50,597 nt of DNA, taken from sequence record SRR22947725_2318. The stretch is one strand, 5' to 3'. The notes under the pieces were generated by a model. It did not search any database. It was not told the origin of the DNA and saw nothing but the letters and a program-made list of their open reading frames with translations. The translations under genes were made by a program, and so were the position numbers. Of the stretch, positions 6,350 to 28,133 are shown piece by piece; within the stretch, counting starts at the first letter, position 1, and each line of letters opens with the position of its first letter.

Positions 6350-8914
6350 CTACTCTCGGGTCAAAGTTTCATCCATGTTCAAGATACCCAGGCTCACTGT
6401 GGTCCATGCGGCTAATTTCATACGATTCAAACCTGCAGGTATGTCGGATTCTCCGTGGCTCAGCCAGGCATCGATAGCTTCTCTATCACTTGAAAAATAG
6501 GAGCGTGCCCGATCTGCGCTTTGTATCCAGATAGACCTTTCCTGATCAGAGGGGGGGCGCGCCAGAGTGAGTAGATAGATTCTTTCTAGGATTTCATGGT
6601 CTTGCAGCTTATCAGACATTGCTTGAATTGAAAGTCCACGAGCAGCTTCAACAAACGTCGTGTCATTGAGTGTGGCAAGGGCATGGAGGGGGCTGTTGGT
6701 GCGTTTGGCGTCCACATTGCAGGTTTGCCGCGAGGCGGTGTCAAATAAAAGGGTTGGTGCAATGATGCGTCTCCAGAAAGTGTATAAACTGCGGCGAAAC
6801 AGCTTTTTTCCATGATCCTGACTGTATTTCTTGTTTCCGAAAGTTGCGTCCTCCCAGACCCCGTCGGGTTGGTAACCGTTCACTGGAGCCCCCCCCAGCG
6901 ATGGATCCAGCAGGCCCGCTGCTGCCAGGGCTTGGTCTCGAATCATCCATGATGGAAGTCGGAATCTTGGAGCACGTGCATATAAACGGTTTTCTGGATC
7001 CGCTTCAATCAGCTTGGGAGTTGCCACTGAACTGCGTTGGTAGGTTTGACTGGATAAGATGATCTTGATGAGTTGTTTCACATCCCAACCTGAATCCATG
7101 AATTCGGCGGATAGCCAATCCAGCAATTCCAGATGTTTGGGGAACTCACCCTGGACACCAAAATCCTCCGGCGTCTTGACCAGTCCCATGCCAAAGAACT
7201 GCTGCCATAATCGGTTTACGGTCACGCGTGCAGTCAAAGGGTGGTCTCTTCGCATCAGCCACTCCGCAAGATTCAATCTGTTTGGAGGACTTTGAAAATT
7301 TTCCAGAGGAGGTAATGAAGCGGGGACGGCTGCAAGAACAGTGTCTCTTTTCTGATTGTAAAGACCGCGCTCGAGCATGGGAGTTTGGCGGCGTTTACTG
7401 ATTTCCTCCATGACCATTACTTTTGGAATAGAGCGTTTGATCTTGTTTAGTCGGTCTTTTGCCTTGATCCATTGGTCGCGGGCATTGGCAAGTTCTGGAA
7501 CAGAAGTAATGAAGGCATCCATCACGGTTTTCTTCTGCTTATCTGTGCGTTTTTCATCTGGGGTTTTGAGTGCCAGCTGGAGTGCCTTTAATGATTCTTT
7601 TTCAGCCTCTTTCTCGGTCTTGATCAGCGCATTGATTTGGCTAAGTCGTTCGGCTTCCCATGCCTCCAATTCCTGCATGTGCTTATCTTTGAATTGATAG
7701 AATTCAGATTGAGTTCTTTGAACGACCATCTCTGCCTGATTAATGGCCATGGATTGAGCCGGTGAAGGCGTTGAAAGGATTGGGGGTGTCTGAGGGTCGC
7801 CACCTCCGCCTGTGACAGGGGTTTGATTGAAAAAATCAAACAACTGATAATATTCTTTTCGAGTATAGGGGTCATACTTGTGATCGTGGCAGCGGGCACA
7901 AGTGAGCGTTGCTCCCAGCCAGACAGTGCCCATGGTCTCGGTCATGTCCATGACATAATCCACACGATTTTCCTCGGGGATGCGTCCTCCTTCACCATTG
8001 ATCATGTGATTGCGACAAAAACCGGTCGCCAGTTTTTGCTCATGAGTTGCGTCTGGCAGAAGATCGCCTGCCAATTGCCAGGTGGTAAAGGTGTCCCAGG
8101 GTAGATTATCGTTGAAAGATTCTACAACCCAGTCACGCCATGGCCACATGGTTCTTTCTCGATCTCCTTGATAACCATTGGAGTCAGCATATCTTGCTGC
8201 GTCGAGCCAATTCCACGCCATGCGCTCGCCGTAAGCAGGGGATGCAAGATACCTGTCGATGGCCTTTTCGAACCAGGTGTGCGTGGTATCACCGAGAATT
8301 TCGTTCAATTCCTCCAGAGTAGGGGGAAGGCCGGTCAAATCTAGAGCCAGCCGTCGGATCAATGTTCTACGGTCTGCTTTTGGCTGGGCGATTAAACCTG
8401 CTTTCTCAAGAGCTTTTTCAACAAACGCATCAATGGAATGCTTTCCTGATTTCGGAGGTGATTGCTTTTCAATGGGGTTTAGAGACCAATGGTTACCCCA
8501 CTTCGCTCCTTCGGTAACCCATTGTTCCACCAGTTTGATCTGAGCCTTGCTCAATGGGCGGCCCAGTTTGTGTGGTGGCATCAGGTCATCTTCATCCTCT
8601 GTTGTAAGCCTGCGGATTAATTCACTGTTCAACGGATCACCTGGACTGATTACAGCCATCTGGTTTTCCGCATGTTTTTTGGCACTTCCCTCAATATCTA
8701 GTCTTAAATTTCCCTTGCGAGCCTTTGGATCGGGGCCATGACATTGAAAGCATGCATCCGATAACAACGGTAGGATTTCTCGGGAAAAATCAATGGTTTG
8801 GTTTTCATTTGCCTGAATCAGTGACCCTGAAATGAAAAGAAGCAGGCATAGGATATGAGTTTTCAAGGACAGATCCCAATGGACCGGTTTGAATCTGCAA
8901 AGAATGGACTTCAT
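6350..8914 (-). CDS. planctomycete cytochrome c / DUF1549 / DUF1553 (PSD1) protein
   Basis: CFQCH and [11 protein letters not shown] heme motifs, [19 protein letters not shown] and LATLND. Start uncertain (8914 ATG or 8956 TTG). Confidence 0.92.
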
Positions 8915-9036
8915 GTCATTCAATTGAAAAATTTGATGAATCGTTGGAGTTATCAAACAACACTAAGGAATATGCGGTTTTGCTGCAAGTGGCGATTCTT
9001 TCATCCCATGACTCATAGTTTTTTCAGTGTAAAATT

Positions 9037-9104: not shown

Positions 9105-12100
9105 TTAATCAGCAGTGATGGCCAGCATGAAGGGAGAACTGTCTTTCATGCTGGATGTGTAATCAATGGCTTTGATGACTTTTTCCGGATGCGGGTTGTT
9201 CCAGGCTTTCTTGAATAATCGCAGCTGCATGGAGGACTCCCTGGTAGCTGCGTTTTCACCTTCCCAGGCGGCCTGTGATCCGCTGAGTGAGGGAGCATCA
9301 GGAGCGGTCCACCAATCAGCCACATCTTTACCGTAATGCACTCGAATCACATTTTCCGTTCCGTCGCTATAGTAAATGGTCCATTTGGCAATGGTTTGCC
9401 CTTCTTCGGATGGCCATCCCGCACCATGAAGGAAGTGCAAATGTTCAGCTTTCCTGCCAATAATGATATTGGTGACTTTCTGTGGATAATCAATCGAGGA
9501 AACAGTCTGAATCTGTTGCCCATTTAAATGGATCAAACCACGCACATCAAAAGTGACACCGGCCAAATCGACTGTTCCTTTTGGAAAGGATGCCAGGTCG
9601 TTGCCTTCCAGCCCTCCAAGGTGGAAGTTGTCATCCAGGGCTGCGTTGTAATATGCATCCAGAGGAATGCATTGGTCCGGTGTGTGATCGGCCCTGGTCG
9701 GGATCGGTTTCCTTGGTCCTGCTGCCGTTTTATGGCCGGTGTGACCAGGGGCTTCGTTCATGCCTTCCTTAATGTTTTCCATGAATAACCATTGAGGGTT
9801 CTTGAGCAGGGTTTGTTTTCTTTTGTCAGGGTTCATGTCCAGAGGAGTCATGGCTCTGGACATGAGTGTCTGGATTCCCTCAGGATTTCTGAGGTAATTT
9901 TCAGCCAGCGAATTTCCAATTATTTTTATCAATGAAGAGAGGCCGCCAGTATGATGCAGGATGCCGAACTCTGACGTGTTATCGTGCTGTTTTACATAAG
10001 TCATGATGCCACCAACATCCGTTGCAATGGCCTCGTAATCCTCAATGATATCTTCCAAAAGGGGGGCCATCCTTGGGCGAGGAAATGCTATGTTCCCGGG
10101 TAGGAGGCCATAGACCTTCCCGCTTGCAGGGTCCTGATTCACCGCTGCCAGTAGAGGTGAAAAGGGAATCGATGCAAGGGCGTTTTTGATGGCTGTCTCA
10201 TCAGTCTGATCGATGTTTTCAATCGCCGACTGGGCTTTTTCCAAATAAGCGTGAATATCCCGATGTGCTAATGCCTCCATACTGGATAAAGCATGAATGG
10301 CAGTAGGCAAGGTGTCGTTCAGTTTGATGAACGAGATCGAGTGGGATCCCTCAGGTACAATGTTCAACAAAGCCCTCGCACTGCCCGGCATTCTGGAGCC
10401 AGATTGCCACTCAAAATTTTCCAGCCATTCCTGACTGCCACTGTCCTGATGGTAAACGAGATGATTGTCAATTTTGCGCGCAAGATAGACTTTTCGATGA
10501 ATGAGCTCGTGTTGATTGAATCCAAATAAACCGCTCTTGGTAAGCCATACATTTTCCCAGGTTAATTCGCTCACATCGCCCTCTTTTTTCTGAGTATTCA
10601 CTCGATAAATTTGATCGATCCATCCCTGGCGTTGGTAAGGTTCCAGCTTTTGAAAGGCTTGCTTGCGGCTATTTTCAAGAACAAATTTCTGTTGAATCAA
10701 GTGTTGAGTAAACAGATCAGGTCCACTATCGGGTGCGATGAACACTTGTCGATAGGCGGGTTGATATTGTTCCTTTGTCCAATCGGATAAAAATGTCCTC
10801 AGCGAATCATAGTTTCTGGGGTGAGGCGTGTCTTTTACTTTTGCTGCTACCTTCAGAGTCCAATCAGATTGCGACTCCATGGGTTGTAAAATGATCTGAT
10901 CATTGTGTGTCTTCTGTAATTGGTCCAGCCATGTTGTTCTCAAATCTCTGGCTTCCAATAGGTGTCGCAACTTTTCCAATGTCTGCGTGATCCAAATGGA
11001 TGGAATCTTGTTGGGAGTTTGTCCTTCCGCTGACCACTGGTTTGCCTGGGCAGGGAATCTTTCGAGTGCTGATTCAAGTTCCTTGAGAGGGATTGGACGC
11101 GTCTTTTTATGCGGGTCATGTGGGCCTGCATGTAACATGAACGTGAGTCCCGGTGTCAGTGATTTGCCTCGAATACCCAAAGTGAAACCTTCAAAGGATT
11201 CAGTAGCTGAAGCAATACTTTCAAAGGTTGTTTGATACGCTGCAGTGACCACGCATTCGGCATAATTCAGCAATTCCTCCATGCCACTGAAAGGCAACTG
11301 CATTTTGATCTGGGCGTCGATGGCCTTACGTTCATCTGCCGATATTTGCTTGAGCAGGGCCTCTTTTTGCTGACTTAAAAGAGAGATAGGAAGATATTTG
11401 AACAAGCCAATTTGACCAAGCAAAGGCTTTGCCAGGCCAGGATGTACAGAAATAAAAATATCCAGATCTTTTGCCTTCTGAATGACATCTGACATGTGCG
11501 GATCTTCGGATAACCTTGAATAACCCTCTTTATCTCTCAGAAGCAATAACAAGGAAGGTTCTCCTGAAATGTAAAGGCGCCCGTTGCTCGTCAAGCCGAA
11601 GCAACTTTTCAGAGGACCCATTTCTAACTCTGCTTTGAGCATGTCATAACCGCCAATGGATACTCTTTCTGCTTGAAAAGGGCCTTCTGCTTGACCTGCA
11701 AGTGACATGAAAGTTCTCGCATCGGATAGGCCGAGACTGAGGATGAAAAACTTGGAAGGATCCCCTGGATAGATGGAAAGGGTGATGTCTCCTCTCAAAT
11801 CCAGACCTGTCTGGTTTTCCAGCTCCTCGGTATCCAATGCTTCTCCGTTATTGAACATTCCAAGGACACTCAGCAAAGGGTGTTCTTGTTCCATTAATAC
11901 CCTAAAAGGACTTGGGATAAATGCATCTGGAAGAGTATCCTTGATTAATGTCTCGGCTTGAAAAAACAGATCGAGCGGATTCTTGATCTTTGCGTGCACG
12001 ATGGCATTGCTTGGTAGCGCATCTTCCGGTTTCGGCGATTTAACACGCTGATGCTCCTGTGACCATGCGCCTGTGCAGGATAAAATGACCAAACAATTTA

Positions 12101-12152
12101 GACTTACCCAACGAATATTGACGAAGTGTTGCAAGGGATTATTGAATAGCAT
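9105..12152 (-). CDS. large secreted hypothetical protein with a C-terminal PVC-type beta-sandwich domain
   Basis: 1015 aa with a signal-like N-terminus. The C-terminus 'GVTFDVRGLIHL..HFLHGAGW..YYSDG..VADWW..WNNPHPEK..PFMLAIT' resembles a module I recall from PVC kinases and hydrolases. Confidence 0.7.
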   Translation of the reverse strand: MLFNNPLQHFVNIRWVSLNCLVILSCTGAWSQEHQRVKSPKPEDALPSNAIVHAKIKNPLDLFFQAETLIKDTLPDAFIPSPFRVLMEQEHPLLSVLGMFNNGEALDTEELENQTGLDLRGDITLSIYPGDPSKFFILSLGLSDARTFMSLAGQAEGPFQAERVSIGGYDMLKAELEMGPLKSCFGLTSNGRLYISGEPSLLLLLRDKEGYSRLSEDPHMSDVIQKAKDLDIFISVHPGLAKPLLGQIGLFKYLPISLLSQQKEALLKQISADERKAIDAQIKMQLPFSGMEELLNYAECVVTAAYQTTFESIASATESFEGFTLGIRGKSLTPGLTFMLHAGPHDPHKKTRPIPLKELESALERFPAQANQWSAEGQTPNKIPSIWITQTLEKLRHLLEARDLRTTWLDQLQKTHNDQIILQPMESQSDWTLKVAAKVKDTPHPRNYDSLRTFLSDWTKEQYQPAYRQVFIAPDSGPDLFTQHLIQQKFVLENSRKQAFQKLEPYQRQGWIDQIYRVNTQKKEGDVSELTWENVWLTKSGLFGFNQHELIHRKVYLARKIDNHLVYHQDSGSQEWLENFEWQSGSRMPGSARALLNIVPEGSHSISFIKLNDTLPTAIHALSSMEALAHRDIHAYLEKAQSAIENIDQTDETAIKNALASIPFSPLLAAVNQDPASGKVYGLLPGNIAFPRPRMAPLLEDIIEDYEAIATDVGGIMTYVKQHDNTSEFGILHHTGGLSSLIKIIGNSLAENYLRNPEGIQTLMSRAMTPLDMNPDKRKQTLLKNPQWLFMENIKEGMNEAPGHTGHKTAAGPRKPIPTRADHTPDQCIPLDAYYNAALDDNFHLGGLEGNDLASFPKGTVDLAGVTFDVRGLIHLNGQQIQTVSSIDYPQKVTNIIIGRKAEHLHFLHGAGWPSEEGQTIAKWTIYYSDGTENVIRVHYGKDVADWWTAPDAPSLSGSQAAWEGENAATRESSMQLRLFKKAWNNPHPEKVIKAIDYTSSMKDSSPFMLAITAD

Positions 12153-13355: not shown

Positions 13356-14303
13356 TCAGGGTGTGATTTGTCCTCGGATTTCTCCCCCTCCATTGCCGGT
13401 GGTATGGATGTTAATGTATGCCTCTCCCGACATGATGGCTTGAGCCGTTGCATCCGTCACCTCCGTGCCCCCCATGAAGGTGCCAGAGCGGGAGTTTTCC
13501 GGCTGGTGCAGGTCTGTTCCGCTCAGAGCAAACAATACGCCGGAATTAGTGCCTTTGGGTGCAGGTCCATGGATGTGAGCCGCAGTGAAGTCCGATTGCA
13601 AACCTTCATAGTGCACATTGACCGCAAGGTAATTTCCATCAAGCGAGACGGAACCCGATCCATGCGCTTTGGTTGTCACAGCAGGAACCTCCTGACCACC
13701 CCTTAAGAATACCGTGAAGGTCTGTCCGCCTGAGCCGTCACCCACGCGATAAAACATCGTCGGACCGTCGGCACTTGTTTGGTAAGGGCTGGAGGCATTG
13801 TCCACGGGAAACCATGGGCCCAGAGGACTTCCAGATGATTCCAGAGTCCCGCCTTCCTCCCACGTCAGTGTCAGATCGTTGCCGTCTGCCTGAATGAACA
13901 ATGTCGTGGAAACAGGCTCCGGCGTGGGTATGTCAGGAAAACTGCCCGCAACCCCCGGGTTGGTTACTTGAGCGCCAGCTTCTGCGATGCCGTCGCCGTC
14001 AGGGTCCCCTAATTCAAGACCATTTGAGAAACCATCTCCGTCTGAATCCATGGAAGCAAGCACTTCACTCCAGAAAGGTGCTCTGCTCCCACCCACAATG
14101 GACCGCACCTCATCCCCAAACGGAGTCCTCGGACCACCCCCAGAGCTTCTGATGTGGCAACTTGCGCAACCCAGTGAGTTACCGTTGGGTAACATTGCCA
14201 CTCTAAAACTTCTCGCATGTGCTTTTTCGATGAATGCACAATGCAGAGCACAACCAACAAGCAGCAAGACCGAATAAATCCATTTACTGTTAAAAGATTT
14301 CAT
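13356..14303 (-). CDS. secreted Temptin-like/CxxCH domain + CHRD domain protein
   Basis: Signal peptide; LPNG..CASCH..GGGPRTPFG..W..DSDGDGFSNGLELGDP; C-terminal CHRD (QEVP..AAHIHGPA..YINIHT..GEIRGQI). Confidence 0.85.
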   Translation of the reverse strand: MKSFNSKWIYSVLLLVGCALHCAFIEKAHARSFRVAMLPNGNSLGCASCHIRSSGGGPRTPFGDEVRSIVGGSRAPFWSEVLASMDSDGDGFSNGLELGDPDGDGIAEAGAQVTNPGVAGSFPDIPTPEPVSTTLFIQADGNDLTLTWEEGGTLESSGSPLGPWFPVDNASSPYQTSADGPTMFYRVGDGSGGQTFTVFLRGGQEVPAVTTKAHGSGSVSLDGNYLAVNVHYEGLQSDFTAAHIHGPAPKGTNSGVLFALSGTDLHQPENSRSGTFMGGTEVTDATAQAIMSGEAYINIHTTGNGGGEIRGQITP

Positions 14304-14655
14304 AACTTTCTCAAATAATTTGCCCCATCCTGCACGCGAGTCAACCCAGCCTTGAGTTTCAAATGATTTTTCATGATTGTTTTTTGAATGAAAAATAAAT
14401 ACGGATACCGACGCTCTTTAAGTTTGTTTCATGAACAACGCACCATCACAATAATCCTGACAAAATTTTAGTCATTCAAAAAGTGAGCATGATTATGACG
14501 CGTGAAAAACTTGCACTGACCCCTGGCATGGGGGTGATTTCTGAAAAGCTTCCCAAAGGAGAAAGCTTTTTCGTAATCATCAAATGTTTCCAAAATCAAA
14601 TTGCAAATGTGTATGCCCTTTGGCGATTTTTGATTGTCATCTTTTGGAGAGAATA

Positions 14656-14955
14656 TCAATTGTGCTTTGATCGATGCTTACTTAACGCTTGTCGGAGTTC
14701 GTCGAAGGTGAGCGCTCCATCAGTGTTCGTGTCGGCTGAGTTGAATAAGTTATCAGGATTAGCGGAGCGTTGAGCGGCTTGGGATTCGGTAAACTCTTTA
14801 TGGGAGAGCTCGCCATCACCGTCGACGTCCAGTGCTTGGAAACGCTTCTGGGCATCGTTCATGGCTTGTTTTCGCTTTGCAAACGGGCGCTTGCTCTGCG
14901 GGCTTGCACAGCCGGTGATTATCAAGGCCAAAAGTAGGAGTAGCAGTGTTTTCAT
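14656..14955 (-). CDS. EF-hand lipoprotein
   Basis: Lipobox IITGC and two EF-hand loops, DVDGDGELSHKE and DTNTDGALTFDE. Confidence 0.85.
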   Translation of the reverse strand: MKTLLLLLLALIITGCASPQSKRPFAKRKQAMNDAQKRFQALDVDGDGELSHKEFTESQAAQRSANPDNLFNSADTNTDGALTFDELRQALSKHRSKHN

Positions 14956-14970
14956 CAAAGATTTGAGACT

Positions 14971-16659
14971 TTAGGGGTTGGTGATGACACGGAAGTAATT
15001 CTTCTGCTTTCCATTGGGTACAATGGGCATAACCGTATAGCCGTAGTTTGCGGACGAATGAGCGGTTGATGAATACGGATACCATTCCAAGAGATCGTCT
15101 GAGCGTTCGATCTTCCACGAATTAGAAACCGACTCGTAAATAAGAGAATGAGTTTGATCGCTATTCTTGCGTATCTGCAATGAAGGCAACTGCTCGGAGT
15201 CTCCAGGATCGAGATGGTTCAGGGAAGTGTTCTCGTCGCCCTCCCGGTAGTCGACGTAGTTGAATCCCAGAAGATACATTTCGTCTGTGGTCTTGCCTCC
15301 CCACCCGCTCGCCTTCGGGGGCATGCTGGGGTTCATGGGATTATCAGCCGTGTTGTCGTAGGTGGCGATGGCATGGATGGTCGAACCTTTGTCAATTTTT
15401 AGGTATCTTGGCAGGGGGTAGTCCCCCTGCCAATTGAAGTCCCATGAATCGATTTTGAGAAAATTTTGGCGATTGCCCTCGGGATCGATGGCGTAGATTT
15501 CCCAGCTTTTCCCAAGCAAATGGCAGTGTGGATAGATACTGATGAGGCTAATGTCTTCCTCCACGTTCCAGATACCGTGGAAGCGGGAGATTTCGTCAGG
15601 AGGCAGTTTGAAGAGTGACCAGCCTTCGAGCCTGCCGCCGAAGCCTTCTCCTAACCGACCAGCAATATTGCCGCCGTTTCCGGCCCCGCCGAAACCGTTC
15701 TGGCCGAATTCTTCGGCAAGTTCTTGGACAACGTCGAGACGTTCTGACAGCTTGAGCTCTGGAGGTTGTAGTGTGTCTTCCTTAACGAGATCGAAGGGCA
15801 TCATCTGGCGTGTTTTGAGATAGCGCTCCACAGGCTCATCGGCGAAGAACAGGTTGACGCCGGATTGATCGGAATCCCTCACCGGCCATGGGGCATAGTG
15901 GGTTTGCATGAGAATGTCAGCACCGGCTGGTAGTTTAATGCCCACCCCTTTTGGTAAACGTAGAGGAACCGCGCCAGGTGTGTAGCCGGGGAGCTGAGCT
16001 TGGGGACTGATAGGTATGCCAAATCCGCCAAAGACTTCGTAACCAACAAGCGGATCACTCGCATCGCTCTCGCGCGCCTGTCCCGTGGTATCAAAAGCAA
16101 GCAACCCGTGATGTAAGATGGTGCGGTTGCCTGGGCGGAACTCGACGCCAACGAGATCGCGGTCTTCGTCTAGCCCGGTGGGCAATACAAAGACGCGGTA
16201 TTCATCTGCATTACTCCCCTTGATCTGATAGGGTTCGTCGACACGTAAGGTGAGGTCGGGGTTGCCCAGGGCGGAACCATTGGGGAACGTGGGAATGGGT
16301 GCTTCCAAAGCCGGGTTGCCCTCCGGCATCCCGGCTTTGATCCACTGGTCGATGGTTTCGACCTCTTGATCAGTTAACCCGCGCTCACCCAAAAACTTGA
16401 ATTTGCTAAATTCGCGATCAGGCATCCAAGGTGGCATGTAGCCCTTGCGCGTGACACTGAGAATGGTGTAAGCCTCGTCACGTACTTCTTCAAAGTTTGT
16501 CAGCGGAAACGGGCCGATTTCGCCAGCACGATGACAAACGGTGCAGTTGTTGTAAATGATGGGCGAGATGTCCTTGGTATAGGTAACTGTGTTTTGGCCC
16601 GTCAGGGGGGGCAGACAAATGAAAGACAATGTCAGTGCTGTGATAATCTTTTTTTTCAT
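14971..16659 (-). CDS. cytochrome c-fused copper type II (PHM/DBH-like) monooxygenase
   Basis: Likely start is MKKKIITAL (signal peptide) at 16659. Contains CTVCH + MPPW, and candidate Cu ligands LHHG, QTHY, PHCHLLG, DEM; also WDFNWQ. Confidence 0.88.
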   Translation of the reverse strand: MKKKIITALTLSFICLPPLTGQNTVTYTKDISPIIYNNCTVCHRAGEIGPFPLTNFEEVRDEAYTILSVTRKGYMPPWMPDREFSKFKFLGERGLTDQEVETIDQWIKAGMPEGNPALEAPIPTFPNGSALGNPDLTLRVDEPYQIKGSNADEYRVFVLPTGLDEDRDLVGVEFRPGNRTILHHGLLAFDTTGQARESDASDPLVGYEVFGGFGIPISPQAQLPGYTPGAVPLRLPKGVGIKLPAGADILMQTHYAPWPVRDSDQSGVNLFFADEPVERYLKTRQMMPFDLVKEDTLQPPELKLSERLDVVQELAEEFGQNGFGGAGNGGNIAGRLGEGFGGRLEGWSLFKLPPDEISRFHGIWNVEEDISLISIYPHCHLLGKSWEIYAIDPEGNRQNFLKIDSWDFNWQGDYPLPRYLKIDKGSTIHAIATYDNTADNPMNPSMPPKASGWGGKTTDEMYLLGFNYVDYREGDENTSLNHLDPGDSEQLPSLQIRKNSDQTHSLIYESVSNSWKIERSDDLLEWYPYSSTAHSSANYGYTVMPIVPNGKQKNYFRVITNP

Positions 16660-16672
16660 AAACGTGCGTTCG

Positions 16673-17185
16673 TTAGAATTTAGTGAAGGGAATGAAGCAA
16701 CCGATGGCTTCGGTGCTTTTCGGCTCAACGGCTTCGCCTTTGGCGAGGGTTTCAAGAACTTCGAGGAGATCGTGCGAAGTCGTGACGCGGCGGCGTTTGC
16801 CGAAGTCGGCGTAGGTGTTGTCGATGCGGCCTCGGTAGAGTGTCTTGCCTTCCCGGTCAAGGACGACGACTTCCGGGGTCACCTTTGCTCTCAAATGATG
16901 CGCTTTGCTTAGACTCGAATCGGGTTCGATGGCAAATGGGATCTTAAACTTGGCCTTGAAGGCGGCCACGCTTTGCTTCGTGGCTTTGCTAGAGGAGACG
17001 TAACCACGAAAGGCGATGCCTTCCTTCGCGTAGCGCTCTTGGAGTTTAGAGAGCGTCTTGGTATGATAACGTGCAATGGGGCAGTCTTCCTTCAGGAAGA
17101 CATGCACCGTTGCAATGGGTATTGGCTTCTTGTCTCCAACAGCAACCGTGGCGAGAAGGAGAAGGATTGTGGTGATAATCTTCAT
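16673..17185 (-). CDS. secreted redoxin / AhpC-TSA family (PRX-like) protein
   Basis: Signal peptide, FLKEDCPIA, AKVTPEVVV, YRGRIDN and C-terminal AIGCFI. Confidence 0.88.
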   Translation of the reverse strand: MKIITTILLLLATVAVGDKKPIPIATVHVFLKEDCPIARYHTKTLSKLQERYAKEGIAFRGYVSSSKATKQSVAAFKAKFKIPFAIEPDSSLSKAHHLRAKVTPEVVVLDREGKTLYRGRIDNTYADFGKRRRVTTSHDLLEVLETLAKGEAVEPKSTEAIGCFIPFTKF

Positions 17186-17192
17186 GCCTCCC

Positions 17193-17220
17193 ATACCCGT
17201 GGGAGTTACAAAGCGTTACT
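17193..17220 (-). promoter_or_regulatory. ECF sigma promoter upstream of the redoxin-monooxygenase genes
   Basis: AGTAAC-N17-GGTAT, 7 nt before the ATG at 17185; matches the motif upstream of the sigma gene. Confidence 0.65.
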
Positions 17221-17237
17221 GGGCAATGAAGATTTCT

Positions 17238-17636
17238 TCAGTGAACCGCCTGACGACCCTCAAACACCTGCTGCAGCAGTGGCAGGTCATCGCGCACGGC
17301 ATTGTGGAATTCTATCTGCTGCTCGTCAGTCAATTCGGCGAGAATGCCCTGACGGGTGTCTGTCAGAATCTTCCAGAAGCGGGGCCGAAATTCCTCGCGA
17401 AGACCTTGTTTTTGTTCCCGGAATTCTGTGAGGATCTGTGCGATTTTTTGGTCTTGTTCGGGCGGCAGGGAGAGTTTGGCGAGGCTCGCATTAAGCCGTT
17501 CCGAAAAAATCGATGGCCGTTCGAGTGCTCTGGCAAGCATATTGCGGTAGGTAATCCTTGTTCCTGTGACACCGGTGATGACGCCTGTCAGGAAGAGTAT
17601 GACAAAGGCAATAATGATTTTCTGTTTTGTGTTCAT
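17238..17636 (-). CDS. membrane-anchored helical periplasmic protein (Spy/CpxP / heavy-metal-sensor-like)
   Basis: N-terminal TM helix and repeated L-x-L-x-x-E-Q motifs (LSLPPEQ, LTDEQQ). Confidence 0.7.
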   Translation of the reverse strand: MNTKQKIIIAFVILFLTGVITGVTGTRITYRNMLARALERPSIFSERLNASLAKLSLPPEQDQKIAQILTEFREQKQGLREEFRPRFWKILTDTRQGILAELTDEQQIEFHNAVRDDLPLLQQVFEGRQAVH

Positions 17637-17935
17637 GGTGTGATGACAGTATTGAATTCAGAATTCCAAGCGCTGGCCAACTCTTCGGTGCCTGCTGTAA
17701 GGCTGGGGAGACCACTGGTATACATGATTACCTCCGAGGTTAGAAAGGCCGCAACGACAAAGGTCGCAGCCCAAGCCAGTTTCGGGAGGAGGAAATCAAT
17801 CGTGATCACATTGTTAGCCGAAGCTGGCGCGGTCAGCGACATGACTTGATCGGTAAAGTTCTCCGGAGGCGCGACAGCGGGCGCTTCACGAGCGGTGCGG
17901 AAGAGTTTCTCAAGTTTAGGTTCGTTGTCTTTCAT
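17633..17935 (-). CDS. putative single-TM anti-sigma factor
   Basis: ATGA overlaps with both neighbours; 'LEKLFRTAR..PPENFTDQVM' followed by a TM helix. Confidence 0.75.
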   Translation of the reverse strand: MKDNEPKLEKLFRTAREAPAVAPPENFTDQVMSLTAPASANNVITIDFLLPKLAWAATFVVAAFLTSEVIMYTSGLPSLTAGTEELASAWNSEFNTVITP

Positions 17936-18507
17936 GGGGATTCTTGAAGACGAATCAGGTTATCGGTAAGTTTTTTTTTGGCGCGATGGAGGGCGACGCG
18001 AATGGTTCCTGCCGCTTTGCCGGTGAGTTGACCGATCTCTGGCGACGTGCGCCCTTCGATCTCAGCCATGGTTAAAATGACCTGTTCATCCGGGGTGAGG
18101 TCCACCATGCAGCGATTCAATATTTCCCGCGCTTCCATGGCCTCGAGCGGGGCGGAGTTATCTTCCTGTTGAAGCCATTCAAGAGCGCCTTCACCGAGTT
18201 GGGAAAACGGCACCTGGTGGCGAAAGCGTTTCTCAGCACGCACATGATTGAGCGCCACGTTCGTCGCCATGCGGGACAACCAGTTTTCAAAAGGTGCTTT
18301 CAAAGGGTCGAATTTCTCCAGTTGCCGCCAAGCTTTGACAAAGACGTCCTGCGCCATGTTCTCCACACGACCGCGGTCACGCTCGTAGCGTGAAAGGATG
18401 GCAAAGACGCGTTCTTGGTATCGCTCGACCAACTCGCAGAATCGCTCAGGGCGACCCGACAGGATCGAACGTACGCAGGCGGCGTCTTCCTCAGCTATAG
18501 CGGACAC
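17932..18507 (-). CDS. ECF RNA polymerase sigma-70 factor
   Basis: Region 2 (LVERYQ..AQDVFVKAW..FENWLSR) and region 4 (EIGQLTG..GTIRVALHRA). Confidence 0.95.
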   Translation of the reverse strand: MSAIAEEDAACVRSILSGRPERFCELVERYQERVFAILSRYERDRGRVENMAQDVFVKAWRQLEKFDPLKAPFENWLSRMATNVALNHVRAEKRFRHQVPFSQLGEGALEWLQQEDNSAPLEAMEAREILNRCMVDLTPDEQVILTMAEIEGRTSPEIGQLTGKAAGTIRVALHRAKKKLTDNLIRLQESP

Positions 18508-18520
18508 ATTTATACTCTCT

Positions 18521-18548
18521 ATACAAGGGAGGCTTCTGAAGTGTTACA
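18521..18548 (-). promoter_or_regulatory. autoregulatory ECF promoter
   Basis: TGTAAC-N17-TGTAT directly upstream of the sigma GTG start. Confidence 0.65.
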
Positions 18549-18945
18549 ATGAATCTTTGCTGGCTATCGCCGATCTTTATGTTTGAAATCCCTTTAACGT
18601 TAGGAACCGTTTGAGAGTCAATCAAGCGGTTCTCAGTCTGTCCTTTTGATACAAAGGCATCGTCATGGAGTTAAGAGGACTGCGGCTGCAAGTTTATCGC
18701 GGAGGAGAATGCAGGGATCGAATCTGCAACTTTCGAGTGGACGCACCCCAGAGTCACGGCGTCAAATAGAACATTTCTCAGTGACTTCGTTCATGGAATA
18801 CCCAGCACGGCTGAGGGTAATCTTCTGCTTGTGCGTGCTTGCCTCCTTGTTTCCTCAAGGAGGCAAACCGCTTAATGCTTCCGAGGAAAGTCAGCCTTCC
18901 CTGCGGGAGTTGCTTCATTAAATTTGAAATAACGATACCTTATGC

Positions 18946-20187: not shown

Positions 20188-20460
20188 GGTTTGATGTTTT
20201 CCTGTATTACCTTACGCAGGGCAAGTTGAAAGTGAACGCATCGCTGCGGTAATCCTTGAGTGATGGACTCAATACCCGTAATAAATTGTGGAAATTTCGC
20301 CTTTCAGGTCAGGATTTTTCACTTGAACGCGTCTTTACTTAGTGTCAGAAAACACAGATAAAAATCAATCCGATACCTTTTCTTTTGTTCTGAATATTTT
20401 TGATCGATCCCATTTCACTCGAGGGAATGGGCAAACCCACTCTCATACCGTTGTTCATTG

Positions 20461-20991
20461 ATGAAGCTAGATGAATCGCAAATCTTGAAGGTGTTAATGG
20501 AGTGGCGGAATCGCATTTCCGCTGCGACATGGTTGGTTGTGAAGGATGCTCATGCGGTAGAGGACATCTTTCAAAATGTAGCCATCAAAGCCATCACCCG
20601 GAATGTTGAATTCAAAGCTGAGGCTGCTTTGGTCTCTTGGGCATTCATTACTGCAAGAAGAGAGGGAATTGACTGGATCAGGCGACAGCAAAGGGTCTCC
20701 ACGGGGTTGAGCGAGGATCTAATGAAAGTTCTGGAAATGGAATGGGTGGCTCATTCCGACAAGACATCTTCTGGTGCGCGTGTGGAGGCACTCTCCAGCT
20801 GCCTTGATGGAATACCTGACAAATCAAGAAGTCTATTGAAGCTTAGATACTTTGAGGGATATAACTGCATCGAAATTGCTGAAAAGATAGGCATTGAATT
20901 GAATACCGTCTATAAACGGTTATCGCGCCTGCATCAGGGATTACGAGTCTGCATTGAGCAGAAAACCCGAACGGACTCAGGCCATCTCTGA
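20461..20991 (+). CDS. ECF sigma-70 factor (PVC-type)
   Basis: DAHAVEDIFQNV, SWAFITAR and LLKLRY..EIAEK..TVYKRLSR. Confidence 0.92.
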   Translation: MKLDESQILKVLMEWRNRISAATWLVVKDAHAVEDIFQNVAIKAITRNVEFKAEAALVSWAFITARREGIDWIRRQQRVSTGLSEDLMKVLEMEWVAHSDKTSSGARVEALSSCLDGIPDKSRSLLKLRYFEGYNCIEIAEKIGIELNTVYKRLSRLHQGLRVCIEQKTRTDSGHL

Positions 20992-21005
20992 TATATTGGA
21001 AATCA

Positions 21006-22370
21006 ATGAAAGACGGAATATCGCACGAAGAATTGCTTGTCAGGTTTTTGGATGGTTCATTGTCTCCACCTGAGGAAGCCGAGCTCATGCAGTTACTCGA
21101 GCAAGATGCCTCGGCAAGGGAGTCCCTGCGAGAAATGTCAGAGCAGGCTATCGCTGTCGCAGATCTCGAACGGACCAGCGTTGCATTGAGGGCCGAAACT
21201 GCTCGGCAACCTCAGCGCGAGCCCGATGTCGATGAGCACGCCTTCATGCGAGGGTTTCTGCGAGTGAGTTTTAAATTCGTTCTTCCACTCGCAGCTTTGA
21301 TCACTCTGACAACAGTGGTTCTCCAAGAGATTATTTCAAAAGAACCTGCCCCGTTTCTGAAGATTTCAAAAGTAAGCAGCGCTTCTCATCTCCATACGGC
21401 CCTGGGTAAGATTGAGGATCAGCTGGAGATCAATATGCCTGTCAGGGAAGGGGATACGGTTGAATCCAGATCCTGCGACTCATGGCTTGTTTTGCAGCTT
21501 GGCGATAAATCCCACATTACCCTTGCAGGTCACAGTTATCTGCAAAACCTGGAGAAAGAGGAAGATTCGGTTCAATTACGGTTTTTGACCGGCAGTTTGT
21601 GGGCAGAGTTTTCTCAAGAAAAGGAGATGCAGTCCTTTACCATCCAAACCCCTACGTGCTCAATCGAAATAAAAAACGCCCAGTTTGATCTGCACACGGA
21701 ACGTTTTTTTACTCGTCTGCGCGTCAACGATGGAACCGCCGTTGTGACGAGACTGTTGGATCAATCCCGCAGCGAAGTGCGTTCGGGGGAGCAAATTGAA
21801 TGCAATATCGATGACGCTGCGGTCTTTGAATCGAATGAACAGCCTCTTCCCGTCGATCACTGGCAGTGTCAGCTCCTTAAAGGTCCTGACATTTCTCTGG
21901 GCACAGTGCTCCCCTCTTTCGAAAACGATTTCGCTAACATCAAGGCAGAGCCTCTGCCATGGAAGGTACGACATGACAAGCATATCATGCTATACGCGGT
22001 AGCCCTTTCTGTTTCTAGAAGTAGTGATCAACCTGTCTTACTGCAGCCTGGTTCGACTCTTCGATATTATGTGAGTTATGATGAGCCAGACCGTGTTAGA
22101 TTTGGCTTCAGCACTCAGCGCATAGGGGGTGTTTATGCGGGCAAGTTTGAAACAGATATCCAACCATCGCAGCTTGGTCCGGCAGGAGATATTCTAGAAA
22201 TAGAATTGGACTTGGACGCATTCTGGCCATTGAGTCCTCAACTTTCACCAAGACCGGAGGGACTTGAGGTGAGTGATATTTACGCATTGACCATCAAACG
22301 TGATGCCGGGCTCAAGGTGCATCGTATTGAAATTATTCCGCCGGATAACAGTGGATCGATCCTAGACTGA
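21006..22370 (+). CDS. FecR-domain anti-sigma / transmembrane sensor
   Basis: Anti-sigma N-terminus (RFLDGSLSPPEEAEL), TM helix and FecR-like 'GSLWAE..IQTP..F..V.DG.AVV'. Confidence 0.82.
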   Translation: MKDGISHEELLVRFLDGSLSPPEEAELMQLLEQDASARESLREMSEQAIAVADLERTSVALRAETARQPQREPDVDEHAFMRGFLRVSFKFVLPLAALITLTTVVLQEIISKEPAPFLKISKVSSASHLHTALGKIEDQLEINMPVREGDTVESRSCDSWLVLQLGDKSHITLAGHSYLQNLEKEEDSVQLRFLTGSLWAEFSQEKEMQSFTIQTPTCSIEIKNAQFDLHTERFFTRLRVNDGTAVVTRLLDQSRSEVRSGEQIECNIDDAAVFESNEQPLPVDHWQCQLLKGPDISLGTVLPSFENDFANIKAEPLPWKVRHDKHIMLYAVALSVSRSSDQPVLLQPGSTLRYYVSYDEPDRVRFGFSTQRIGGVYAGKFETDIQPSQLGPAGDILEIELDLDAFWPLSPQLSPRPEGLEVSDIYALTIKRDAGLKVHRIEIIPPDNSGSILD

Positions 22371-24921: not shown

Positions 24922-27900
24922 ATGAGATACAGAAGAAAACGGAGCGGCCTCGGCCTGCTGGCATTGGTTGTATTCTTGAGTCAGGGTGTTTCAGCTGCTG
25001 AACGACCGGTCATAGAGGGTCTTCAGCTAGAAAATGGACAACTAACGATACAGGTGGATGTGCCTGATGGTTATGGGCATGTCCTTGTTGAATCCGGAAG
25101 CGATCTACGAGATGAATTGCTGCATCCTTTGGTCTCTGGCGAGATTTTTGGTTATGCTGGAACAGCTACAATATCCATTCCAGAGCCAGGGCACACAACT
25201 TTTCTTAAAATCCAAGCAGGCATTGAAACAAACCCTCCCTTGGCTACCTACACGGGGGGAAACTATTTTTATTTTGAAGCGGATCTGCCAGGAGGTGGGC
25301 CACTGAGTCAATCACAAGCGGCCAATCACGCCCTGAACCGACTTGCCTATGGGCCAACTCCTTCTGACGCTGCATGGATTGATGAGGTTGGATTGGATGC
25401 TTTTATTGATGCCCAATTACATCCGGAAACGATCAGTGATGAGCGAAATGCAAATCTGACTGGTTCAAATCGATCGTTATTTCACGAGTACCGGCCAGGC
25501 CTTGATACAAAAATGATAGCCGATGGGGACCTGTGGTATTTACGAAAAGGCAATATCGCTCCACCGGCCGATTGGAATCAATTGGACCACAAGATTACGG
25601 ACGACACGGGCTGGAGTTTAGTTCGTTCTGGTTTTGGTTACTCCAACAATGGTAATGAGAGAGATTATTTCCGCTTCGAACTGTCCGACATGAGACGTAT
25701 TGAGGAAGGAGAGGATGCTCGTCCAGGCTATTTAAGTTTTTTTGTGCGTCGTGAATTTGATGTTTCAGATCCATCTGAAGTGGGAGGTTTATTTCTCAAT
25801 ATGATTTATGATGATGGATTCGTGGCATACTTAAATGGAGAGGAAGTGGCGCGCGCCAATATGGGAGATTTGATTCGGCCCAATTATCGTTCAAAGTCAG
25901 TAAGGTCTGCAGATGGTGACCCGGATTTCGGGCTTTTCGAAATCACTGAATCCAAAGATCTACTTGTAGCAGGTACAAACGTTCTGGCGATTCAACTTCA
26001 TAATACCAGTATCACAAGCTCTGATGCCATTCTTGCACCAGAGCTTATCCACCGTGATTTTTACCCCGGCAGGGAGTATGACCGAATCAATGACATAGAT
26101 TCTCTCCAGAAGTTAATCCATGCCCAAGGCATGTTCAGCAAGAAACAACTTCAAGCGGTGATGGGGGAATTCTGGGAAAATCATTTTACGACCGATTACG
26201 ACAAGACAGCTGAGTATCTGGATGACCTGGAGGACTCGCTCGGTGACAATGCCATGTTCGAGCAGCAAGCCGAGCAAGAGGCAGCACATGTTGAATTTAA
26301 AGAATATGAGTTTTTCCGCGATCACGCTTTTGATGCTTTCGGGGACTTATTACTTTACAGTGCGACCAGTCCTTCCATGTTGATATACTTGGACAATGTT
26401 ATTAATGAAGTCGGTGAAGCCAATGAAAACTATGCACGTGAAATATTAGAGCTTTTCGCGTTTGGTGTTGATAACCGTTACACCCAAACAGACATTGAGG
26501 AATTATCTCGGTGTTTTACTGGTTGGCAGATTCGAAAAGTAAGGGCTGATAAGACTCAGGGATTTCCAGAATCCGCCTTGAATCCCCCTACACAGCCAAG
26601 TACCGGTTTCTTTGATCTTCCAATTGTCGATATAGGTTCAGGTTGGCGCTACTTCAAGGGAATGCGAGAGCCTGTTCGTTATCGAGAAGGTCTGGCACCT
26701 GAATGGACTAGGGTTGGCTTTGACGACACTAATTGGCTCAAAGGGGCAACCGGTATTGGCTATGGCGACGAAGACGACAATACCGTTCTTCAAGACATGC
26801 GCAGAAGGAATGAACAAAAAGGGTATTCCAGCGTTTTCCTGAGGCGTCATTTTACTCTGCCTGCGGGCACAGAGATCAGCGATTTGGTGTTGTCCATCGA
26901 TTACGACGATGGTTTTGTTGCTTATATCAATGGAAAAGAGGTAGGACGAAGTGCCAGCATGTCCGATACTGGAACACCTCCAAGATTTAATGAAACAGCT
27001 TCTCAAAATCATGAAGCGGGTGGTGAACCTGACGATATAAGCCTTGCTCGCTACGAGAGATTTTTCAACCCTTTTCCAGAGACCAATGTGCTTTCCATAC
27101 AAGGGCATAATGTAAACTTTACCAGCTCTGATTTTTCTGTCCTACCGCGTTTGGTGAGCAGGAGTGTTACTCAGGAAAGCATCGAACCGGGAGATCCCAA
27201 TGGACAATGGGCTTTTCGCTTCAATCCAGCTGATCATGACTATACTGCCAAGATACTTTTTGAGGGCACCGAGTGGGAAATGCGCATACCGGATGATCGG
27301 CAAGGCGTCGAGGGTCTGAGTGATGCTCTTGATGTCATCAAAATGATGGCGAACCATCCTTCCACCCGTGAGTTTATCTGTGTCAAATTGGTGAATAAAT
27401 TTGTGGCCGATAAAATCACCCTCCGCACATACAAGGATGGTTCTGCTCCTTCGCACTTATCAGACGTTGTCGATCGTGCTATCGATGCATGGCAGCAGGC
27501 TGAACCGATCGGACATATTGGAACCGTACTAGCTGCCATATTTGATCGGTCAGACGTTTTCAACCCATTTTGGACGCAATCCGTTTACCAAGCAAAGGTC
27601 AAGACTCCTGTTGAATACATCAATAGTCTGGGGCGGGCAATGGAGTGGGGAGTCATGCTGGATGATTTACCTGAAATCAGTGAAGACATGGGGATGCATT
27701 TTTTTACGCGCGACGATCCTGACGGATGGTCCGAGTATGGATTTGATTGGGTAAACACGGGAGCCATTTTGGAGCGATTGAACTTTGCCACTCGATTAAC
27801 ACGACACAACAACAACAAATACCTTCGAAGCTGGTCGATTCGGCGGTATTTAAGATTGCATGACATAGAGACCGCAGAAGAAATAATAGATCATTTTGAT

Positions 27901-28077
27901 CAATTATTATTCAACGGTTCCCTATCGAAGGACACACGTGATTTGATCCTTAATTTCGCTCGAACTGCAGAGAACGGCAGACGAACCGTACTTAGTCCGG
28001 AAAGAAATGATTACCTGTCCAGGGTAGGGGAACTGATCGGACTTATTCTTGCCATACCGGAAATGCACTATCAGTAA
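24922..28077 (+). CDS. DUF1800 family protein with two inserted beta-sandwich domains
   Basis: HALNRLAYGP, FWENHF, SMLIYLDN, NENYAREILELF, FTGW, HPST..FI..KL and KVKTP. Confidence 0.9.
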   Translation: MRYRRKRSGLGLLALVVFLSQGVSAAERPVIEGLQLENGQLTIQVDVPDGYGHVLVESGSDLRDELLHPLVSGEIFGYAGTATISIPEPGHTTFLKIQAGIETNPPLATYTGGNYFYFEADLPGGGPLSQSQAANHALNRLAYGPTPSDAAWIDEVGLDAFIDAQLHPETISDERNANLTGSNRSLFHEYRPGLDTKMIADGDLWYLRKGNIAPPADWNQLDHKITDDTGWSLVRSGFGYSNNGNERDYFRFELSDMRRIEEGEDARPGYLSFFVRREFDVSDPSEVGGLFLNMIYDDGFVAYLNGEEVARANMGDLIRPNYRSKSVRSADGDPDFGLFEITESKDLLVAGTNVLAIQLHNTSITSSDAILAPELIHRDFYPGREYDRINDIDSLQKLIHAQGMFSKKQLQAVMGEFWENHFTTDYDKTAEYLDDLEDSLGDNAMFEQQAEQEAAHVEFKEYEFFRDHAFDAFGDLLLYSATSPSMLIYLDNVINEVGEANENYAREILELFAFGVDNRYTQTDIEELSRCFTGWQIRKVRADKTQGFPESALNPPTQPSTGFFDLPIVDIGSGWRYFKGMREPVRYREGLAPEWTRVGFDDTNWLKGATGIGYGDEDDNTVLQDMRRRNEQKGYSSVFLRRHFTLPAGTEISDLVLSIDYDDGFVAYINGKEVGRSASMSDTGTPPRFNETASQNHEAGGEPDDISLARYERFFNPFPETNVLSIQGHNVNFTSSDFSVLPRLVSRSVTQESIEPGDPNGQWAFRFNPADHDYTAKILFEGTEWEMRIPDDRQGVEGLSDALDVIKMMANHPSTREFICVKLVNKFVADKITLRTYKDGSAPSHLSDVVDRAIDAWQQAEPIGHIGTVLAAIFDRSDVFNPFWTQSVYQAKVKTPVEYINSLGRAMEWGVMLDDLPEISEDMGMHFFTRDDPDGWSEYGFDWVNTGAILERLNFATRLTRHNNNKYLRSWSIRRYLRLHDIETAEEIIDHFDQLLFNGSLSKDTRDLILNFARTAENGRRTVLSPERNDYLSRVGELIGLILAIPEMHYQ

Positions 28078-28133
28078 GCTGCACAGCCTATCAATCCCTC
28101 AACTCAGACATAACCTTTAAATACATTTTTAAA

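Follow-up and report, generated by a model that had tools for sequence, protein, structure and literature searches.

In this study, we analysed a 50,597-nucleotide (nt) stretch of DNA from the sequence record SRR22947725_2318 (hereafter, the window), in which seven minus-strand open reading frames (ORFs) at positions 13356-18507 had been described as one periplasmic copper-monooxygenase system under the control of an extracytoplasmic function (ECF) sigma factor. At its core are two genes, one for a secreted protein that is predicted to join a c-type cytochrome domain to a copper core like that of peptidylglycine α-hydroxylating monooxygenase (PHM) and dopamine β-hydroxylase (DBH), which we call the enzyme, and one for a secreted thioredoxin-fold protein, which we call the redoxin (Table 1). 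All of the seven ORFs were placed where the first-pass annotation had put them, and its picture of six tightly coupled genes, followed about 350 nt downstream by a seventh that encodes a secreted CxxCH protein, agreed with the coordinates, overlaps and gaps. ATGA overlaps join the genes of the sigma factor and the anti-sigma candidate (17935-17932) as well as those of the anti-sigma candidate and the helical protein (17636-17633). The later gaps measure 43 nt (helical protein to redoxin), 13 nt (redoxin to enzyme), 12-15 nt (enzyme to EF-hand protein) and 352 nt (before the Temptin-CHRD gene). The ATG at 16659 was chosen as the start of the enzyme gene because a longer frame that opens with TTG overlaps the redoxin gene and because the homologues begin at MKK.

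Table 1. Features of the six-gene cassette and the adjoining Temptin-CHRD gene (positions in the window; aa, amino acids; AF2, AlphaFold2)
Feature	Position	Strand	Basis or remarks
ECF (group IV) sigma-70 factor	17932..18507	-	GTG start; Pfam, NCBIfam
100-aa single-pass membrane protein, candidate anti-sigma factor	17633..17935	-	proposed from position only
132-aa membrane-anchored helical protein, weakly LTXXQ/Spy/CnrX-like	17238..17636	-	sub-threshold Pfam, Atlas lead
173-aa secreted thioredoxin-fold partner (redoxin)	16673..17194	-	Pfam Redoxin; C38-P-I-A, C166, G132-K-R-R loop
562-aa secreted cytochrome c-PHM-like protein (enzyme)	14971..16659	-	fold and motifs
Enzyme, cytochrome c domain, about residues 23-115	16315..16593	-	C39xxC42H43, M75PPW
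Enzyme, PHM/DBH-like two-domain copper core, residues 132-472	15244..16266	-	H183, H184, H254 CuH-type; H378, H380, M461 CuM-type
Enzyme, C-terminal beta-rich domain, residues 483-562	14974..15213	-	strands in AF2 model
100-aa EF-hand pair protein, lipoprotein-type signal (ITGC)	14656..14958	-	Pfam EF-hand_1
11-bp hairpin, candidate end of the transcription unit	14544..14570	-	RNA folding
315-aa Temptin_C-CHRD secreted protein with CxxCH	13356..14303	-	Pfam CHRD, Temptin_C; neighbour, judged outside the unit

The identification of the enzyme as a PHM-type protein was borne out when its AlphaFold2 model, which was built from a 29-sequence alignment (predicted local distance difference test score, pLDDT, 77.8), was superposed on PHM. 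The top 26 rows of a Foldseek search with this model were all PHM or DBH (best E 4.3e-15, probability 1.00). VIA-align placed model residues 132-472 onto residues 55-327 of PHM (3mic) with a Z of 20.1 (root-mean-square deviation 3.2 Å, 258 residues aligned, 22 % identity), and DBH (4zel) followed with a Z of 19.5, whereas the next fold, PNGase F, reached a Z of only 7.4. The six copper ligands that are expected of a PHM or DBH (HH, H, HxH, M) and the N-terminal c-type haem motif, which had been picked out by the first-pass annotation, proved to be not only present but conserved. Among 95 homologous ORFs from 89 loci, the haem motif C39xxC42H43 was found in 94 and the distal M75 in all 95, while H183, H184, H254, H378, H380 and M461 were each kept in 92-94; every miss was a gap in one of four ORFs that are cut by a contig end. 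The cytochrome domain has helices across residues 27-108 of the model. Moreover, some relatives clear the Pfam cut-offs for the domains of the copper type II monooxygenases PHM, DBH and TBM (PF01082 and PF03712; P0143 with 34.5 bits for the C-domain and P0176 with 42.1 bits against 30 for the N-domain), and relatives reach 34.1 and 37.1 bits for Cytochrome_CBB3 (cut-off 27). Judging by the model and the motifs, we firmly assign the 562-aa protein as a two-domain copper-type core of the PHM/DBH fold joined to a c-type cytochrome domain. A tie to solved PHM through sequence alone was also looked for and dropped: the single protein gave a chance match only, and the full-length profile, which aligned the 'LQVHY' segment of PHM to the residues around H254, did so with an E of 0.45.

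Two motifs, WDFNWQG and YDNTxxNxxNPxxPP, are invariant and specific to the enzyme family. The C-terminal domain (residues 483-562) matched no Pfam family, and relatives carry in its place a type IX secretion system (T9SS) sorting tail, a dockerin-like tail or other tails (PF18962 or PF00404). A kinship of this domain with the middle of the Temptin-CHRD protein was considered, as both end in aromatic-Arg-Val, and was rejected, since the two have no similarity and no Pfam match.

The partner protein matched Pfam Redoxin (PF08534) with 33.0 bits against a cut-off of 26.6, and its AlphaFold2 model has a thioredoxin fold with a pLDDT of 92.2. When its profile was compared with solved chains, the best matches were 2cvb (4.1e-25), 2ywi (1e-21) and 3u5r (1.5e-17), all of which bear generic or 'uncharacterized' depositor names; the matches to ResA, StoA and other TlpA-like chains were weak (1e-7 to 1e-3). 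An alignment of 38 partners has two invariant cysteines, C38 and C166, of which C166 belongs to a C-terminal 'GCxI'. The G-K-R-R loop (132-135) begins with glycine in 60 of the 62 stand-alone partners, and basic residues almost always come next; the fused forms conserve it poorly, and it is missing from 2cvb and 2ywi, two solved homologues without a partner. As the loop resembles Gly-Lys-Arg, the amidation signal of animal prohormones, it was considered as a substrate of the enzyme; its poor conservation in the fused forms made this unlikely and would fit a role as a docking latch better.

The association of the two proteins was followed by translating all of the frames of the 77 best loci and searching them with the proteins of the window. 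The redoxin gene adjoins the enzyme gene on the same strand in 62 of the 77 loci, which belong to several phyla, and in a sample of the window's phylum, which gave another 12 loci, it was adjacent in seven, fused in three and missing in two, with no ECF gene in any of them. An all-against-all clustering of the neighbouring ORFs revealed no other neighbour family in more than 8 of the 77 loci, the larger clusters being overlapping frames inside the enzyme gene. By contrast with the redoxin, the genes of the sigma factor, the anti-sigma candidate and the helical protein were found beside the pair only in a clade of 80-86 % identity (L001-L004), and, therefore, the conserved functional unit is two genes. 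Fusions point in the same direction. They were examined in 53 of the 150 best representatives, a biased sample that was picked for a length above about 600 aa or a late-starting match. A Redoxin/AhpC-TSA domain was fused to the enzyme in 27 of these 53 long relatives, at the N-terminus in 23 and at the C-terminus in four. Tails of tetratricopeptide repeats (TPR) were present in 17 of them, those of the FGE-sulfatase, Kunitz and T9SS types in one each, and dockerin-like tails also occur in relatives. P0121 carries EF-hands fused to the enzyme, as does P0227, where they are placed after the enzyme and before the redoxin. To judge from these sequences, the fusions connect the enzyme with the redoxin and, in a looser way, with the EF-hand module.

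A complex of the two proteins (residues 22-482 of the enzyme and 22-173 of the redoxin), folded without alignments, was predicted with an ipSAE interface score of 0.81 in three of three runs, compared with 0.00 for the best of three controls; in the calibration of the mark that was applied to this score, solved complexes reached it in 51 of 78 cases and mismatched pairs in 2 of 108. The runs share at least 93 % of their contacts, and the pLDDT of the partner is 91. On the redoxin side, the interface comprises residues 37-39 (with C38), the helix 42-47, residues 165-167 (with C166) and the loop 129-137 that holds GKRR. On the enzyme side, it comprises residues 50-75 of the haem domain, residues 148-150, 257-260 (beside H254) and 381 (beside H380) of the copper core, residues 407-409 of the invariant WDFNWQG, and residues 441-446 with the family-invariant N443 and P444. 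In the model, the redoxin, thus, sits over the junction of the haem, CuH-type and CuM-type sites, and its predicted contacts fall on invariant residues that are specific to the enzyme family. The model supports binding of the redoxin to the enzyme as a likeness to real complexes rather than as a measurement. Adjacency, fusions and predicted binding together support the view that the redoxin is a dedicated partner of the enzyme.

The enzyme family is large. A word-indexed search returned 1,380 matches at E ≤ 1e-3 among the 8,000 candidates that were scored, and an exhaustive search of representative clusters returned 13,255 at E ≤ 1e-3, 7,571 at E ≤ 1e-10 and 2,299 at E ≤ 1e-30. Among contigs from one genome per species, at least 555 of at least 609 matched stretches encode a relative of the enzyme. 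The best 77 loci belong to Verrucomicrobiota, Bacteroidota, Latescibacterota and a few other groups, and a T9SS sorting tail is present in many of those from Bacteroidota; in the window's own phylum, the family is sparse, with 10 of 301 sampled genomes having a match at E ≤ 1e-20. In their source records, the matches are named 'hypothetical protein', 'cytochrome c' or 'T9SS type A sorting domain-containing protein'. The first-pass annotation knew of no characterised example, which agrees with the full-text literature (subscription journals not covered), where no study of bacterial haem-fused PHM-like enzymes or of their redoxin partners was found. The parts of PMC8812541 (2022) that bear on the topic present the PHM family as widespread in eukaryotes, and the passages in question of PMC3091736 and PMC12665527 concern matters other than a bacterial haem-PHM family.

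The sigma factor matched Sigma70_r2 (64.9 bits, 5.8e-18), Sigma70_r4_2 (45.6 bits, 5.4e-12) and NCBIfam TIGR02937 (91.2 bits against a cut-off of 42.9); having regions 2 and 4 only and about 190 aa, it is classed by its sequence as an ECF (group IV) factor. The anti-sigma candidate, whose translation contains one hydrophobic stretch, is conserved in L001-L004 and matched no family in Pfam or NCBIfam. The helical protein is likewise conserved in these four loci; in the window, it has a total of two histidines and one internal methionine. It had been labelled Spy-like; the Pfam matches lie below the cut-offs, both for LTXXQ (PF07813; E 0.028, 15.5 bits against 24.3) and for Metal_resist (PF13801; E 0.13, 12.9 bits against 29.2), while an Atlas lead with a score of 0.94 supports it weakly, 22 of the 30 matches listed falling in clusters with 12-20 % LTXXQ members. 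Since the protein has only two histidines and one internal methionine, a metal site with the ligands of CnrX is unlikely.

Within the clade, the sigma factor orthologues are in place in L001, L002 and L003, and the contig of L004 is cut inside the anti-sigma gene. Downstream of the enzyme gene, L002 and L003 have an EF-hand gene; none was found in L004, and L001 stops directly behind the enzyme gene. The product of this gene in the window matched EF-hand_1 in two stretches (45.9 bits, 2.3e-12) and EF-hand_7 as a pair (37.9 bits). Three more loci, L022, L065 and L069, have weak matches to the sigma factor at a distance of 2.5 kb or more, and these resemble unrelated ECF genes. The co-conservation that was expected of the seven genes, thus, held for the redoxin-enzyme pair (62 of 77 loci) and, in L002 and L003, for the same six genes from the sigma factor to the EF-hand protein; it failed for the Temptin-CHRD gene, which was near the enzyme gene in none of the 89 loci. 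In one of L002 and L003, the cassette is followed by HTH/terminase-like and PIN genes, and in the other, by an M48 peptidase gene and transposases, so that the seventh gene does not appear to be part of the unit. In the window's lineage, the gene content indicates a cassette of six genes, of which the Temptin-CHRD gene is a neighbour.

The end of the cassette may be marked by the 11-bp hairpin, which lies 86 nt past the EF-hand stop codon; the RNA fold of 14520-14660 has -33.9 kcal/mol and a z of -2.33. A scan for consensus terminators on the minus strand after the EF-hand gene found none, and the hairpin has no U-tract. The Temptin-CHRD gene is closely preceded by a sigma-70-like promoter match (14344-14315), which, together with the hairpin, fits a unit that ends after the EF-hand gene. 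At the other end, a clear block upstream of the sigma factor gene (28 nt, 18596-18623) is common to the window and L002 alone; it occurs once in the window. The minus-strand region 18596-18636 that contains the conserved block holds an inverted repeat, GAACCG...CGGTTC, and was also flagged by a plus-strand terminator scan; it could be an operator or a promoter element. The plus strand carries a second ECF sigma factor gene with a gene for a FecR-type anti-sigma factor (20458-22370), some 2 kb upstream of the cassette.

Contigs from RNA libraries (four runs from three studies) cover 26, 19, 14 and 9 of the 30 bins of the cassette, and two from run X16 bridge the gap between the LTXXQ-like and redoxin genes (17137-17376) and the junction of the anti-sigma and LTXXQ-like genes (17460-17752). 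The segment 16417-16617 has no such contig in any of the four runs, which is uninformative either way. These contigs are a weak hint of expression and co-transcription of the cassette. In run X14, a single contig with a depth of 3 and a shorter arm of 30 letters connects 14803 directly with 18601 and leaves out 3,797 nt, namely the genes from the sigma factor through the enzyme and part of the EF-hand gene; it may reflect a cassette-less variant or an assembly chimera.

The host is a PVC-type (Planctomycetes-Verrucomicrobia-Chlamydiae) marine bacterium, and the window beyond the cassette is ordinary chromosome. It encodes UvrB, arginine biosynthesis enzymes, RecQ and LeuS as well as PSCyt/PSD1/DUF1501 proteins. 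The PVC-typical PSCyt1/PSCyt2/PSD1 plus DUF1501 and DUF1800 plus DUF1501 pairs are located at 6350-8956 and 4847-6340 (minus strand) and at 24922-29498 (plus strand), and the first of these pairs also bears a 'Planctomycete cytochrome C' domain. A secreted 1,015-aa protein that is encoded at 9105-12152 (minus strand) matched no family in Pfam or NCBIfam. The Temptin-CHRD protein matched CHRD (92.4 bits, 4.6e-26; cut-off 24.1) and Temptin_C (39.6 bits, 7.5e-10; cut-off 27). Its family gave 1,255 matches at E ≤ 1e-3, and both the CxxCH (C46, C49, H50) and a calcium-type DSDxDG loop were invariant in 16 of 16 aligned members; given this conservation, a c-type haem or a metal site is conceivable in the secreted CHRD protein.

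The nearest genome, G001, shares 76 % of the window's words and is 79 % complete. It lacks the cassette, and its two genes related to the enzyme gene are paralogues (34 % and 31 % identity); a completeness of 79 % makes this no proof of absence. These paralogues are located on G001:C25 (L103) and G001:C55 (L104), one with an adjacent redoxin gene and the other with none within the fetched stretch. The segment 8286-21115 of the window (12.8 kb) falls between two contig ends of G001, with flanks of 100 % and 95 % identity, and represents either a variable island or an assembly break. No flanking repeats that would mark a mobile element were found around the cassette. The gap in G001 and the transposases and PIN gene that border the cassette in relatives suggest that it may sit in a variable region.

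Compared with known systems, the enzyme shares its two-domain beta-sandwich core with PHM (the catalytic core of PAM; 3mic, 1opm and 1sdw) and DBH (4zel), including the order of the ligands (HH...H for CuH and HxH...M for CuM), and has the 'QVHY' segment in common with PHM. The eukaryotic PHM and DBH are supplied with electrons by ascorbate via cytochrome b561, and DBH has a DOMON domain. Unlike them, the enzyme is bacterial and secreted, a c-type cytochrome domain takes the place of the ascorbate/cytochrome b561 supply or of the DOMON domain of DBH, and there is an obligate-looking thioredoxin-fold partner as well as an extra C-terminal domain. The invariant WDFNWQG and YDNTxxNxxNPxxPP at the predicted partner interface are a further difference. 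A resemblance in concept, with no claim of homology, exists with the cytochrome-assisted lytic polysaccharide monooxygenases (LPMOs), in which a haem domain also acts as a built-in one-electron donor. In cellobiose dehydrogenase, it is the cytochrome domain that feeds LPMOs. In contrast to these systems, the haem here is of the c type and its domain is covalently fused to the copper enzyme, and the core is binuclear and of the PHM type instead of a mononuclear histidine brace. Built-in cytochrome domains are mentioned as a general principle in the abstract of PMC6472588.

The redoxin shares its fold and subfamily with the TlpA/ResA-like proteins and with 2cvb ('probable thiol-disulfide isomerase/thioredoxin'), 2ywi and 3u5r, and the C-terminal 'GCxI' cysteine is common to them. 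It differs from proteins with a ResA-type CxxC in having CPIA (most partners have CxxS), an extra G-K-R-R loop and what looks like a dedication to a copper enzyme. As for the regulators, the window resembles CnrYXH of Cupriavidus metallidurans in combining an ECF sigma factor, a single-pass protein of about 100 aa and an anchored helical periplasmic protein, whose genes are encoded together and translationally coupled as in a CnrYXH-type module. In the window, unlike in CnrYXH, the sigma factor comes first, the cut-offs of LTXXQ and Metal_resist were missed and a CnrX-type metal site is unlikely.

We consider it probable that the locus encodes a two-subunit secreted haem-PHM/redoxin enzyme that acts as an ascorbate-independent monooxygenase and that, in the window's lineage, is part of an ECF-driven cassette of six genes. 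Its core would consist of the 562-aa protein, with a haem c and two non-coupled coppers, and of the 173-aa thioredoxin-fold protein that docks onto it. The built-in haem c would accept single electrons from a periplasmic donor and pass them to the CuH-type site, and O2 would be activated at the CuM-type site for the hydroxylation of the substrate. The redoxin would be a permanent subunit over the cleft between the haem, CuH and CuM sites, with C38 and C166 at the interface. For this pair of cysteines, we tentatively favour a two-electron thiol/disulfide relay or a redox switch, with a structural role being only slightly less plausible and some other role accounting for the remainder. The TPR tails of many relatives hint at a peptide or protein as the substrate. 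In the window's lineage only, the pair of genes appears to have been placed behind the ECF sigma factor, the anti-sigma candidate and the LTXXQ-like protein, with the EF-hand lipoprotein after it, and the six-gene cassette would probably be induced by an envelope signal.

Several observations weigh against this interpretation. In Pfam, the enzyme itself scored 22.7 bits for Cu2_monoox_C against a cut-off of 23.0 and 19.2 bits for Cytochrom_C against 21.3, and Cu2_monooxygen, which describes the N-domain, was unmatched. The C-domain profile did not reach PHM and the best full-length profile did so with an E of only 0.45; the link by sequence being weak, the assignment, therefore, rests on the fold and the motifs. 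No results on metal, haem, activity or substrate were found in the full-text literature for any member of the family. The predicted interface may echo a domain packing that was learnt from fused homologues. The motif of the redoxin is CPIA, with a single cysteine and no CxxC, and among the 62 stand-alone partners, 36 have CxxS, 16 CxxC, 5 CxxA and 2 CxxT, with 3 not alignable. One of the 16 fused redoxin domains has SxxE and is free of cysteine at the place of the motif. Because few partners have CxxC and a fused relative lacks cysteine at this place, thiol chemistry may be dispensable. If C38 and C166 are buried in the interface, they would need a route for their re-reduction, and the window contains no gene of the DsbD/CcdA type. 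As regards regulation, ECF genes are present in all four loci of the 80-86 % clade and in none of the 85 others; control by a sigma factor had been presented as a property of the module and, with ECF genes absent at 85 of the 89 loci, it is a local arrangement. The regions upstream of the sigma factor gene in the window and in L001-L003 align poorly (54 % mean column identity), so that no shared ECF promoter was recognised. Finally, RNA libraries can hold DNA, and their contigs cannot prove a single transcript.

A more elaborate form of the same idea, which we hold to be rather unlikely, is an obligate heterodimer that is primed by thiols, in which the haem c and the C38/C166 pair replace ascorbate. 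The redoxin would close the interdomain cleft, help to build the active site and be recharged from the thiol-redox system of the cell, and the family, with more than 10,000 clusters, would hydroxylate C-H bonds in peptides or proteins of the envelope or the extracellular space in the manner of PHM and DBH, here as a response to envelope stress that the ECF factor induces. A strict chain from the redoxin to the haem c and on to copper is possible; it is weakened by the CPIA motif, the cysteine-free fused relative and the burial of C38 and C166 in the interface. This chain was also part of the original description, according to which all seven genes form one self-contained inducible system with electrons passing from the redoxin thiols to the haem c and then to copper. 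Six of the genes are indeed tightly coupled, the seventh lies on the same strand and encodes a secreted protein with an invariant CxxCH, C38 and C166 are predicted to lie at the interface, close to the haem domain and the CuH loop, and a dithiol would give the two electrons that PHM chemistry is known to need. We nevertheless regard this full model as improbable, given that the Temptin-CHRD gene is beside the enzyme in none of the 89 loci and that other genes take its place in L002 and L003. In the window, it is set apart by the 352-nt gap with the hairpin and the promoter-like site, and the redoxin has CPIA, with CxxC being limited to 16 of the 62 partners.

Instead of being a working subunit, the redoxin could also serve the maturation of the enzyme, either as a ResA/CcmG-type reductase that keeps the CxxCH ready for the attachment of haem or as a Sco/TlpA-type helper in copper insertion. 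ResA, CcmG, TlpA and Sco serve the biogenesis of cytochrome c and CuA, and the profile of the redoxin does match ResA, StoA and TlpA-like chains (1e-7 to 1e-3). The redoxin has neither a CxxC nor a CxxxC-plus-His motif, its best solved relatives (2cvb, 2ywi and 3u5r) have only generic or 'uncharacterized' names, a permanent fusion at either end of the enzyme, as in 27 of the 53 long relatives, would be unusual for a transient helper, and the redoxin is predicted to dock over the folded copper cleft and onto invariant residues of the enzyme (0.81 against 0.00), all of which make this explanation doubtful, if perhaps a shade less so than the seven-gene model. To much the same low degree as that model, we would credit an oxidase or peroxidase, in which the haem-two-copper protein, instead of hydroxylating an external substrate, drains electrons from the thiols of the redoxin or from periplasmic cytochromes to O2 or peroxide, as a redox or detoxification device of the envelope that an envelope-stress ECF factor switches on. 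The coupling to a triad of sigma factor, anti-sigma candidate and LTXXQ-like (Spy/CpxP-type) protein would suit such a function, the partner has matches of the AhpC/TSA type, and in the predicted complex, the redoxin covers the cleft where PHM binds its peptide. Against it stand the complete CuM-type set, including the methionine, which is strictly kept and typical of the hydroxylating PHM, DBH and TBM, and the TPR, Kunitz, FGE-sulfatase, dockerin-like and T9SS tails, which point to extracellular macromolecular targets; moreover, the ECF triad is present in just 4 of the 89 loci. A purely accidental proximity of genes that do not work together is contradicted by the redoxin-enzyme pair, with its adjacency in 62 of 77 loci across phyla, its fusions and a predicted complex far above the controls, and we consider it extremely improbable.

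PHM and DBH are textbook animal enzymes, and the analysis of this locus places a PHM-type copper core in a large bacterial family, where it is predicted to be exported, fused to a c-type cytochrome and tied to a thioredoxin-fold subunit. The kind of enzyme is, thus, known, and what is new at the locus is the lineage-specific arrangement with an ECF regulator; the ECF cassette, the separate EF-hand gene and the controlled prediction of the complex are the additions that this locus makes. If the enzyme is active, it would demonstrate that non-coupled binuclear copper chemistry can proceed without ascorbate, and the family would represent a large unannotated class of enzymes in marine and soil bacteria as well as a tractable bacterial model for PHM and DBH. 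The ECF sigma factor of the cassette is a candidate regulator and, as such, may offer a route to the inducing condition and, hence, to the substrate.

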